Of a stretch of DNA of 43,575 bases, positions 1,700 to 6,499 are shown piece by piece. The DNA is from Desulfovibrio desulfuricans (GTDB lineage Bacteria; Desulfobacterota; Desulfovibrionia; Desulfovibrionales; Desulfovibrionaceae): the NCBI GenBank assembly GCA_003251995.1, contig QKDT01000015.1:1-43575 (forward strand), written 5' to 3'. Numbering within the stretch: position 1 is the first letter of the stretch; every line of letters begins with the position of its first letter. The translations under genes and the position numbers were made by a program. Below the pieces are notes generated by a model that made no database searches, was not told where the DNA came from, and saw only the letters and a program-made list of their open reading frames with translations.

Positions 1700-1728
1700 A
1701 GTATGTTCGATTGTCAGAACAATGTCAA
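1700..1728 (-). promoter_or_regulatory. PL-like sigma70 promoter
   Basis: TTGACA (1728-1723), 17-bp spacer, CATACT (1705-1700); overlapped by an operator palindrome. Confidence 0.8.
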
Positions 1729-1763
1729 CATGCCAGAAGCAAATTTGTTTGATTAAGAGAACA
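1704..1763. promoter_or_regulatory. Two putative repressor operators (TGTTC-N8-GAACA)
   Basis: TGTTC-GATTGTCA-GAACA at 1704-1721 and TGTTT-GATTAAGA-GAACA at 1746-1763; same motif at 3492-3509 between cI and cro. Confidence 0.75.
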
Positions 1764-1777
1764 TTTTTTGATATAAA
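1749..1777 (+). promoter_or_regulatory. Rightward sigma70 promoter divergent from PL, upstream of the structured element
   Basis: TTGATT (1749-1754), 17-bp spacer, TATAAA (1772-1777) with extended -10 TG at 1769-1770; overlapped by operator 1746-1763. Confidence 0.5.
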
Positions 1778-1810
1778 AAAATCACGCCGAGGAAAACGGC
1801 GCGATACGGG

Positions 1811-2160
1811 GGTTCCGTCTACTCGTTAAAAATGACGGTGAGTGGTTGGCATGACCGACCCGCAGGCCAAAGCGTGAAACTGGCCCCATTCTGGACGGTA
1901 TACAGACAGTGGCGGAATGGGAGTTGAAACCCTCGGAACCACGAAGTCAGCAGCCGGGGTCGCAAGAGTCGAAAGCAGAGAAGAGCGAGACTGACAGGAC
2001 GGGAACGCTACATACCCGGCAAGCTCTGAGCCAATCTAGTTAGCAGCGTACTAGGGTTGGCCCCTCCGATTCCCCGGCTCTCCTTCGGGAATACATGGAA
2101 TCAAGGGCAAGATCGTCCCCATAGCTTAACGGCATGGGTAAGGGCGAGTCTTGCCCTCAC
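1811..2160 (+). ncRNA. candidate large structured ncRNA (~350 nt, unknown family)
   Basis: No ORF of 60 aa or more on either strand in 1830-2204; at least 8 complementary segment pairs, including long-range and crossing ones; G-U wobbles favour the + strand. Confidence 0.6.
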
Positions 2161-2274
2161 TTGCAAGCCCCTCTCCGCTTGGGAATACATAAAGGCATTA
2201 AGAGTTAAAGCATAAAGGCATTTAAGCCAGTAAGTATATTAACCAGTAAAAAGCCCCCATGAAGGGGCGGGAGA

Positions 2275-2430
2275 ATGAGCATGGAAGATTCAGTCACACG
2301 GGAAAGGCTGTTGCAGGTATGCACGGAGATCAATTTCAATCTGGCGCAGCTTGTCGAATATCTCCAAGCAAAAGATGCTGCTGCATCGGTGGCATCTGAG
2401 CCTACTTCAAACCCTCTGTGGAAGAAATAA
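2275..2430 (+). CDS. small hypothetical protein (51 aa; below the ORF-track cutoff)
   Basis: GGGAGA RBS, ATG 2275; MSMEDSVTRERLLQVCTEINFNLAQLVEYLQAKDAAASVASEPTSNPLWKK; overlaps the 3' end of the convergent 2402-2686 ORF. Confidence 0.5.
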   Translation: MSMEDSVTRERLLQVCTEINFNLAQLVEYLQAKDAAASVASEPTSNPLWKK

Positions 2431-2726: not shown

Positions 2727-3434
2727 CTAAAACAACTGCCACACCCACGCCACGCGGCCCAACACTACCTTGTCATAGCCTTCATAATTGATGGTGCGTT
2801 TTTCATAGCGCTCATTGTCTGAAACCAAATCTATCCCGCCGTCAACGCCCATTTTCAGCCGTTTAATCAGCCTGCCGAAAGGTGGGATACTCACCAGATA
2901 AATGCCGCCCTCGGCTATGTCACCATTGAAAGGGACAACGCCGACATACGAGCCACACTTGATTGTCGGTTCCATGCTGTCACCATCAACGCGGAAGGCA
3001 GCCAGATCAGGCAGCATATATTGCGGCAACACCTGGATGAAGGTTTCAGGCTCAGCGTCAAAAAGTTCGACGTCCGGCCCCGCGCCAGTACCGCCAAGCA
3101 CAGGCACGAGGGGTAGATTCTCGCCGCTCACGACATGCTTAGGGGCATACTTCCCAAGCCTGCAAATCATCGGGACATTGGGAAGGTAGTCATGCACGTT
3201 AAGCCCCAAGACGTCTAAATATTTAAGCATGTCTGAAAACGAGGCGTTTGAAGAGGTGGTTGTCCCATTTACCCACCCGCTAACTACCGAGCGAGTAACG
3301 CCTAAACGTCTGCTTATTTCTGCCTGCTTAACGCCGGAGTCTTTCATCTCAACAATCTTGCTTGAGATGGCAGCCCACGCGCTTTGTGCGGCCTGTTCGT
3401 ATGCGGTCAATTCTTCTTTTTCCATATTCATCAC
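2727..3434 (-). CDS. cI: CI-like prophage repressor (HTH plus S24 peptidase)
   Basis: N-terminal HTH (QAEISRRLGVTRSVVSGW); A-G cleavage site (GTGAG); catalytic motifs VDGDSMEPTI and IKRL; divergent from a cro-like gene. Confidence 0.93.
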   Translation of the reverse strand: MMNMEKEELTAYEQAAQSAWAAISSKIVEMKDSGVKQAEISRRLGVTRSVVSGWVNGTTTSSNASFSDMLKYLDVLGLNVHDYLPNVPMICRLGKYAPKHVVSGENLPLVPVLGGTGAGPDVELFDAEPETFIQVLPQYMLPDLAAFRVDGDSMEPTIKCGSYVGVVPFNGDIAEGGIYLVSIPPFGRLIKRLKMGVDGGIDLVSDNERYEKRTINYEGYDKVVLGRVAWVWQLF

Positions 3435-3491: not shown

Positions 3492-3509
3492 TGTTCTTTT
3501 GATAGAACA
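3492..3509. promoter_or_regulatory. putative OR operator
   Basis: TGTTC-TTTTGATA-GAACA directly upstream of the cro start in the cI/cro intergenic region. Confidence 0.75.
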
Positions 3510-5369: not shown

Positions 5370-5609
5370 ATGAACCAGTTACTCAATGGAGCTATTATGC
5401 AGAACAACACCGTAAATGTCAACGCGCAATGCAGCTTGTCTCCTGATGAAATGGAAACGCTGCTGCGTGCGGAGATTGAACTCACTGGCAGGGGTATGCA
5501 AGACGGCCTGCAATACTTCGCTGACATGCGCGACAGGAACACCGCTGCACAGAAGCAGTTGATCGCGCTGCGTGCCGGACAGCAAACTATGGTTGATTGG
5601 AGGGGTTAA
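5370..5609 (+). CDS. hypothetical protein
   Basis: 79-aa ORF (alternative start 5397), coupled by TAATG to the replication gene. Confidence 0.6.
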   Translation: MNQLLNGAIMQNNTVNVNAQCSLSPDEMETLLRAEIELTGRGMQDGLQYFADMRDRNTAAQKQLIALRAGQQTMVDWRG

Positions 5610-6499
5610 TGAACACAGACTTTCGAGTTGCTGTGGACTTTTTCGCCCACCACAAGGCCCGTAAGCTTAAAAAGCGCCTTGGCTCTGATGGGCTCATGGC
5701 CCTGCTGCAATTGTGGGCCTATGCCGCAAAGCTGCGCGCTGATGGCGACCTGTCAGGCATGAGCGTGGAAGATATCGAGCTGGCTTCCGGCTGGGACGGA
5801 ACGGATGGTGCGCTTGTTTCAGCTCTAGTTGAGGTCGGCTTCCTTGACCAGAACGGTGAAGCCTACGCGCTGCATGATTGGCTTGAGAATAATTCTTGGG
5901 CCGCTGGTGCCGATGCCCGCTCGGACGCTTCGCGATTCTCAAGGATGGCTCGTACTTATCCTAACGAATACGCAACGCTGGTTGAAGCTGGCGTTAAGGG
6001 AATCAGTAAAGAGGACTACGAATCGTTAAGGAGCGTTAACGAACGTCAAACGACCGTTGAACGGCTGCTTAACGAACTGCCAAGCCCTGCCCCCGCTCCT
6101 TCTCCTGCTCCTGTTCCTTCTCCTAGCGATAAAGAGTCTTCCCTTCGGGAAGATGCCGGAACCAAGGTTCCGCCTTGTCCTCACCAGCAGATTTTGGACA
6201 TGTACCACGAACTTCTCCCGGTGCTGCCCCGCATGAAAGTTTGGGACAAAGCGCGCAAGGGAAACCTGGGCGCAAGGTGGCGTGAGCGGTGGGAGGCAAA
6301 GGCTTTTTCCTCACAGGCAGAAGGCTTGGATTATTTCAGGCGCATGTTTGAGTACGTTGGGCGTGAGTGTGATTTCCTCATGGGCCGGGTGACAGACCGT
6401 GATGGGAAGCCATTCTTTGCCTCGCTGGATTGGATAGCCATGCCGAGGAACTTCGCAAAAATCATTGAGGGCAAGTACACTCGCAGGGAGGCCGCGTAA
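5609..6499 (+). CDS. phage replication initiator (O-like)
   Basis: N-terminal winged-helix-like region (FFAHHKARKLKKRLG...LWAYA...HDWLE), Pro/Ser linker, C-terminal ASLDWI..NFAKIIEGKY motif; immediately upstream of DnaB. Confidence 0.85.
   Translation: MNTDFRVAVDFFAHHKARKLKKRLGSDGLMALLQLWAYAAKLRADGDLSGMSVEDIELASGWDGTDGALVSALVEVGFLDQNGEAYALHDWLENNSWAAGADARSDASRFSRMARTYPNEYATLVEAGVKGISKEDYESLRSVNERQTTVERLLNELPSPAPAPSPAPVPSPSDKESSLREDAGTKVPPCPHQQILDMYHELLPVLPRMKVWDKARKGNLGARWRERWEAKAFSSQAEGLDYFRRMFEYVGRECDFLMGRVTDRDGKPFFASLDWIAMPRNFAKIIEGKYTRREAA
5992..6077. repeat. iteron-like repeats / putative replication origin inside the initiator gene
   Basis: CGTTAA-like hexamers at 5992, 6024, 6034, 6044 (CGTCAA) and 6055 (CGTTGA), mostly spaced 10-11 bp, just before the linker region as in lambdoid ori. 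Confidence 0.55.

Follow-up and report, generated by a model that had tools for sequence, protein, structure and literature searches.

Our comparison of related phage sequences leaves little doubt that a real structured element lies in the non-coding interval bounded by the leftward early promoter (1728-1700) on one side and by the 3′ end of cI on the other. Its helices have been kept by compensatory changes across three divergent phage lineages, as expected for the structured RNA proposed in a preliminary description of this DNA, and its architecture makes it a likely, enlarged homolog or member of the Rfam family RF02932 (Betaproteobacteria-1). As to function, the reading we favor, at a probability of roughly 0.45, is that of a self-targeting, RNA-primed auxiliary replication origin.

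The window, by which we mean the whole 43,575-nt stretch of DNA analysed, represents a temperate phage of the lambdoid type, which encodes cI, cro, cII, an O-like initiator, DnaB and an integrase as well as virion genes. A 60-bp tandem repeat recurs at both contig ends (1-165 and 43254-43575), which suggests that the phage genome is a complete circle opened inside a repeat-protein gene. The cI-like repressor is encoded on the minus strand (2727-3434; phrog_4, E 1.5e-28). Between it and the RNA element lie a terminator-like hairpin, predicted on the minus strand (2253-2268) to end the cI-side transcript, and variable cargo outside the conserved module (2275-2686), namely a 51-aa ORF on the plus strand and a 94-aa ORF on the minus strand. 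The idea that these two ORFs form an RNA-protein module with the element is not borne out: neither matches a family in PHROG, Pfam or PADLOC, and the neighbours of homologous RNAs differ and vary. A blastn search with window positions 1700-2300 against phage and plasmid collections gave no match.

All nine pairs of complementary segments listed in the preliminary description are present, and 1830-2204 indeed lacks any ORF of 60 aa or more. The expectation of an unusually stable fold did not hold up, as the folding energy of 1800-2170 is no better than that of shuffled sequences (z -0.87 on the plus strand, 0.21 on the minus strand); when the plus strand is folded by halves, the 3′ half scores z -2.26 and the 5′ half z -0.25. 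Since single-sequence folding is unconvincing, homologs were needed, and it is conservation that decides. BLAST identified homologs in two genomes, G049 (74% over about 305 nt; the only one among 100 relatives) and G329, and pattern searches contributed further viral and metagenome loci. The resulting 50 sequences, many of them one contig retrieved repeatedly, reduce to 10 distinct cores in three lineages: the window with L011 and L392, L002, and a group around L004 that includes L387. In an 11-row alignment, the 21 pairs of the four helices whose register MAFFT preserves are paired in 99.1% of 231 cells, and 10 of the 21 have changed on both sides; slid controls for the same helices reach 33-47%. 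The rows share kinship and represent only three deep lineages, so that these counts are not counts of independent events. MAFFT displaces P2 and two pseudoknots by one column, and these were scored per sequence, outside the 231-cell count. Such per-sequence checks showed that every lineage has P1-P3, P4, P5 and P6 along with three pseudoknots and two inserted hairpins, apart from two mismatches in the outer part of P1 in L387, a sequence that is truncated as well.

Six of the nine proposed helices, those of CCATTCTG, GTCAG, CGGG, GCCAATCT, GATTCC and AGGGCAAGAT, are conserved with changes on both strands. GGCCA/TGGCC fared less well: four of the 11 rows keep it unchanged, and the others have a different hairpin in its place. 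The proposed first helix, GGTTCCG/CGGAACC (53% of cells paired), and the CGACCC/GGGTCG pseudoknot (59%) are not conserved. The element is predicted to be pseudoknotted nonetheless, through three other interactions that are conserved. Protein-coding conservation was also looked for in the homologs, and no reading frame is common to the lineages: the window core has 2-6 stops in all six frames, and L004 has one open frame, which is interrupted in both other lineages.

The fold, read on the plus strand, begins with P1 (1886-1920; strands 1886-93/1913-20), delineated by covariation: four of its eight pairs have changed on both sides and 97.7% of cells are paired. Its compensatory pairs 1887/1919 and 1890/1916 recur in sequencing contigs of relatives. 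The P1 loop holds GTGG (1909-12), which forms the nearly invariant pseudoknot 1 with CCAC (1939-42) in the loop of P2 (1931-1959; strands 1931-36/1954-59), a helix of 5-6 bp in all eight sequences examined. The P2 loop also contains GTCAG (1946-50), closed into the conserved pseudoknot 2 by CTGAC (1991-95) just after P3. In P3 (1960-63/1985-88, within 1960-1995), the strand variants TCGC, TCGA, TGGG and TGTC are all paired, and three of the four pairs are compensatory; its loop carries GAAAG and CAGAG (1976-80). The latter pairs in the likewise conserved pseudoknot 3 with CTCTG (2024-28), flanked by the two inserted hairpins (2000-18 and 2030-61), which RF02932 members lack. Next comes P4 (2068-2102), whose loop bears the repeat copy R1 (CTCTCC 2078-83 and GGGAATACAT 2087-96), and then P5 (2104-2157), a long interrupted hairpin bigger than its RF02932 counterpart. 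P6 and the repeat copy R2 (CTCTCC 2171-76 and GGGAATACAT 2181-90) complete the structure (2164-2190).

Several other candidates were discarded. A loose contig pattern matched at least 120 loci in genomes, none upheld by the profile; a GGGTAAGGGCGA pattern matched 31 loci, six of them known members and the remainder unconfirmed; and five weak BLAST matches (L005-L009) were not upheld as homologs. An order-wide pattern allowing two mismatches matched 32 of 401 genomes, with G000 and G049 the only members among the 30 loci listed. Readings as a group I intron or as RNase P, suggested by motifs, were discarded because Rfam gave no such match. Membership in the ARRPOF, ROOL or GOLLD classes, raised in the preliminary description, finds no support in cmscan of the window against Rfam, which returned no match at gathering thresholds; these families and RT- or Abi-associated motifs are also absent among the window's three weak matches.

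Of those three weak matches, RF02932 is the only relevant one. The RF02932 motif, which reportedly comes from a survey of 224 motifs, is typed in Rfam as Gene; sRNA and has a model of 120 positions. The window element scores 21.2 bits (E 0.14), below the gathering cut-off of 49.4 bits, the corresponding position in L002 scores 18.2 bits (E 5.4), and L004 and L012 give no match to this model. Likewise, nhmmer with an extended RF02932 family has its best hit in the window at R2 with an E of only 1.3, and two covariance models (model R1, with a poor RNAalifold structure, and model R2) miss the element. At genome scale RF02932 fails to find the window element, and none of 151 genomes of the phylum exceeds the cut-off; one weak match among them, L482, resembles a cobalamin riboswitch. 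The weak cmscan alignment of RF02932 to the window pairs parts differently from a helix-for-helix mapping.

The consensus pattern of RF02932 yielded at least 120 listed viral loci, and we estimate about 350 viral stretches with the core pattern; 107 of the 120 listed loci passed a downstream-motif filter, and all 14 tested reach RF02932 gathering. These sequences run about 75 nt past the Rfam model and end in a conserved 3′ module (L054-L173). Covariation in 67 non-redundant sequences supports P1, P2, P3, three pseudoknots, P4 and P5, and in addition reveals identity coupling between two segments about 50 nt apart. The window element can be laid over this structure one helix at a time, apart from insertions. 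It shares with the family the P1-P2-P3 order with pseudoknots joining L1 to L2, L2 to the junction after P3, and L3 to a downstream strand; CGAA(A)G ahead of pseudoknot 3; a P4 loop with GGCTC..-N4-GGNA, which recurs 3′-terminally as C(A/T)CC-N4-GGNA; and a place in the phage early region. The 3′ module with its identity-covarying repeat is present in both groups. On the other hand, the core of the window's lineage is about 305 nt against about 200 nt in RF02932, pseudoknot 1 differs in sequence, two inserted hairpins, a larger P5, P6 and a leader are specific to the lineage, and its phages encode full initiators. A descriptor of P1-P2-P3 and the three pseudoknots, composed after both groups had been seen, fits 47 of the 67 RF02932 members and eight of nine lineage loci, the truncated L387 being the exception; within the window it fits nowhere else than at the element. 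In 2.14 Mb of host DNA the core descriptor matches 33 times; the core-plus-repeat version, which fits 30 of the 67 members, matches there once, inside a coding region. We therefore consider homology with RF02932 likely, and the design extends to another bacterial group in a form that Rfam misses. Our search found no study of RF02932 function in the searchable literature, subscription journals being outside its reach.

Expression of the element is probably under repressor control, judging from predicted signals in the DNA. The leftward, PL-like early promoter (1700-1728, minus strand; TTGACA-17-CATACT, 10/12) stands back to back with the predicted RNA promoter (1749-1777, plus strand; TTGATT-17-TATAAA). 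The latter is present as described earlier, although it scores under the promoter-scan threshold. One repressor-type operator, TGTTC-N8-GAACA, forms an exact palindrome at 1704-1721; a second, with one mismatch (1746-1763), covers the -35 box of the RNA promoter, in line with the reported overlap, and is a putative binding site of the repressor. A third copy lies between cI and cro (3492-3509). The window holds four matches to this pattern, including one far away, against 1.28 expected, and three of 100 shuffles are equally high. The homology of relatives in sequencing contigs begins at 1766-1771, just upstream of the -10 box, which is retained in L011, L392 and L487. The L004 group has its conserved 5′ end just behind a TTGACA box, which reads TTGATA in L017 and has a variable spacer. 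In both main lineages, a promoter coincides with the 5′ limit of conservation. These observations, an operator over the -35 box and conservation that starts at the promoter, suggest that the RNA is produced from an early promoter gated by the repressor. The predicted transcript of about 410 nt (approximately 1784-2195, plus strand) would include a leader and the conserved core (1886-2190). The leader hairpin (1781-1805) doubles as a terminator on the minus strand, and an antisense transcript through the element is conceivable. Sequencing runs of relatives (n=8) all consist of contigs, spanning element and flanks alike. Contigs from RNA libraries cover 1828-2080, 1816-2070, 1797-2012 and 1960-2203, but the flanks and other conserved stretches are covered as well, so this coverage does not show transcription; a fold-back end at 1797, seen in a single contig, is too weak to use.

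The three direct repeats of the preliminary description (2087/2181, 2188/2211 and CCAGTAA at 2227/2243) are all in place, and the first of them proved the most informative. R1 and R2 change in step, reading GGGAATACAT in the window, GGGAAG(G/A)GAAG in L002 and CCGGAAC in L004. An exact 10-nt repeat within 401 nt arises in 6% of shuffles. In the 67 non-redundant RF02932-type sequences, R1 equals R2 at two variable positions in 64 and 65 cases, where shuffling would give 40 and 23. The word they share averages 6.9 nt, against 3.9 nt on shuffling, and is 84% purine; none of the 63 sequences with a word of at least 5 nt contains its perfect complement in the RNA. For the window's repeat, a 6-nt part does find an internal complement, at 2069. 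Covariation of the copies and the lack of a perfect internal partner in RF02932 members would fit self-targeting of the RNA to DNA in an R-loop, although identity covariation may instead reflect twin protein sites or gene conversion. Downstream lies an A+T-rich patch with short repeats (2188-2250; 70% A+T against 45% in the window), a candidate unwinding element of which a repeat-length variant occurs in relatives. The 60 nt downstream of RF02932 members likewise exceed the A+T content of their locus in 61 of 65 cases.

The same logic recurs in a second RNA. In the G573 prophage (L487:1515-1770), the same promoter and leader hairpin are followed by a different structured element, about 220 nt long (z -2.97), that is unrelated and has no relevant Rfam match. 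It has a homolog on the minus strand in G285 (L498:1400-1760). Each of these elements has two copies of a purine repeat, one looped and one at the 3′ end, and between the elements both copies have changed at the same two positions; in L498, tandem A+T-rich repeats follow the RNA. The L498 element adjoins an HTH-like gene related to that beside the L004-group RNA, and a swap between RNAs is echoed by loose ends at window positions 1811 and 2213 in contigs of relatives. The motif CTCCGGTGTACTGG is common to the leaders of the family member L387 (205-270) and L498, which suggests that cores have been exchanged behind common leaders. Two viral scans for the alternative RNA gave no match, and a family search gave three: the L498 homolog, a CRISPR spacer (L499) and a chance match (L500). 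The spacer belongs to an array in G311 (L499, around 1500). Between the alternative RNA and cI of L487, the cargo position (1854-2903) holds a TIR/ThsB-like gene and a membrane gene of PDC-M50A-like type.

Taken together, these sequence features would be best explained by a primer or R-loop RNA for a second origin, as the preliminary description had guessed. On induction, the early RNA with its three pseudoknots would be transcribed under repressor control. The looped, purine-rich R1 would pair with the template DNA strand of the identical R2 at the RNA's own 3′ end and nucleate a persistent R-loop there, opening the DNA, and priming or helicase loading could follow at the opened site. Such an RNA origin would supplement an O-type origin in the window's lineage, and might serve as the main origin in those RF02932 phages that have a half initiator. 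A wider form of this proposal, in which the slot is a swappable cassette for at least two unrelated self-targeting RNA folds, each with a looped purine guide invading its own 3′ DNA to provide a repressor-gated, protein-independent second origin, is more tentative.

What is known of a replication context derives from RF02932 members, which are probable homologs of the window element and occupy early and replication regions; many of the 85 distinct loci are fragments. Among these loci, cro lies upstream of the RNA in 23, a Toprim-only primase ends just upstream in 10, and 22 have an ORF of one cluster, taken as a C-terminal-only initiator, whose four scanned members match only about positions 177-261 of initiator families. 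In G575 and G577 the phrog_270 match is limited to positions 176-261. The 124-aa half initiator of G575 is the only replication-initiation match among 48 scanned ORFs of one gene set, and no helicase, primase, polymerase or full initiator turned up among them. The window phage is equipped differently: a full-length O-like initiator (5597-6499, plus strand; N-half phrog_9474, E 3.6e-10; C-half phrog_345), with DnaB next to it, lies 3.4 kb from the RNA element. Five degenerate 10-12 bp repeats in the linker of this gene (6024-6077) probably constitute the conventional origin. Full-length initiators with a helicase or primase gene also occur in all three other complete phages of the lineage that were examined (G580, G582 and G583), repeat arrays of 10-12 bp, typical of an O-type origin, lie inside the initiator genes of these phages, and both prophages with the alternative RNA encode full initiators. 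Given a full initiator and iteron-like repeats, the RNA cannot simply replace an origin-binding domain here, and in the window's lineage it is either a second origin or has some other role in trans.

One such role, which we regard as unlikely, would be that of a scaffold or decoy RNA acting in trans early in infection, with R1 and R2 as twin sites for one phage or host protein. Its own promoter, stand-alone position and a conventional origin alongside would suit this role, as would the sRNA typing of RF02932 and the RNA-only assemblies that related large RNAs form, according to PMC12990946. However, the copies stay alike through many different repeat sequences, so the protein would have to co-vary; moreover, no neighbouring gene is common across loci, and the same repeat logic recurs in an unrelated fold. 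A ribozyme or strand-exchange switch, for which R1 and R2 would be equivalent substrates in cleavage, ligation or circularisation, appears more doubtful still. Three pseudoknots and conserved unpaired bases are in keeping with it, and RF02932 columns 135/185 are identical in 67 of 67 sequences and both complementary to columns 158/167 in 83-87%; yet there is no match to known ribozyme families, the variable purine core has no internal partner, and, as weak evidence, no joint skipping from R1 to R2 appears among the listed joints of relatives' contigs.

We give slightly less credence to a cis-acting leader or put-like antiterminator for the genes after the early promoter. The element does head early transcription units, and an ORF comes directly next in L011, L392 and G582, but only a short ORF or convergent genes lie behind it in the window, L017 and L020, and RF02932 RNAs often come after, not before, a hairpin-plus-T-run. 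A role at the level of single-stranded DNA, with the structure signalling a phage primase or primosome where to prime, is improbable: the Toprim primase upstream of RF02932 RNAs would fit, and PMC5737381 describes single-stranded DNA and RNA motifs as hard to distinguish, but the promoter marks the exact start of conservation in both lineages and variants of the G-U type lie on the plus strand. HNH-type endonuclease genes stand directly behind the RNA in two phages of the window's lineage (L018:2252-2722 and L469:11507-11941), and a few RF02932 loci have similar, unscanned ORFs behind them. Such genes in L011/L018 and G582, and the swappable slot, might bring to mind a selfish or vestigial passenger moved by homing endonucleases, but this is very improbable, as every lineage has kept the helices intact, and an adjoining endonuclease is missing at most loci.

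The coexistence of this RNA with a full initiator limits the simple idea that RNA replaces the initiator. One promoter slot can take either of two unrelated RNAs that follow a common repeat logic, which brings the role of large pseudoknotted RNAs in mobile elements within reach of a direct test. Were the wider reading of a swappable cassette true, the guide could be reprogrammed by altering both repeat copies. T4 possesses several origins, and few phages are known to have RNA-primed origins.

The known systems offer instructive parallels. ARRPOF and PAGEV are tied to plasmid replication in PMC5737381, and they and GEBRO resemble the window element in being pseudoknot-rich (ARRPOF) or motifs of 223-349 nt linked to replication regions. 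These are plasmid motifs, whereas the window element is phage-borne and has no match in Rfam or the plasmid collection. In ColE1, a stretch of rG must pair with a stretch of dC in the template, and T4 origins combine a promoter with an unwinding element (PMC4412123 and PMC5043065, respectively). Both are precedents for an RNA held in a lasting hybrid, through a G-rich stretch or at an unwinding element. Neither shares sequence or Rfam similarity with the window RNA, whose function is predicted. ColE1 is controlled by the antisense RNA I, whereas control by the phage repressor is predicted here; and while ColE1-type replication is independent of an element-encoded initiator, the window phage has an O-like gene and DnaB, which lowers only the case for membership in that type. 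What the window element would have in common with ColE1 RNA II and T4 oriF/oriG is a structured RNA driven by a promoter, a purine- or G-rich stretch that matches the DNA close to the 3′ end of the RNA, and, further downstream, a region that lends itself to unwinding.
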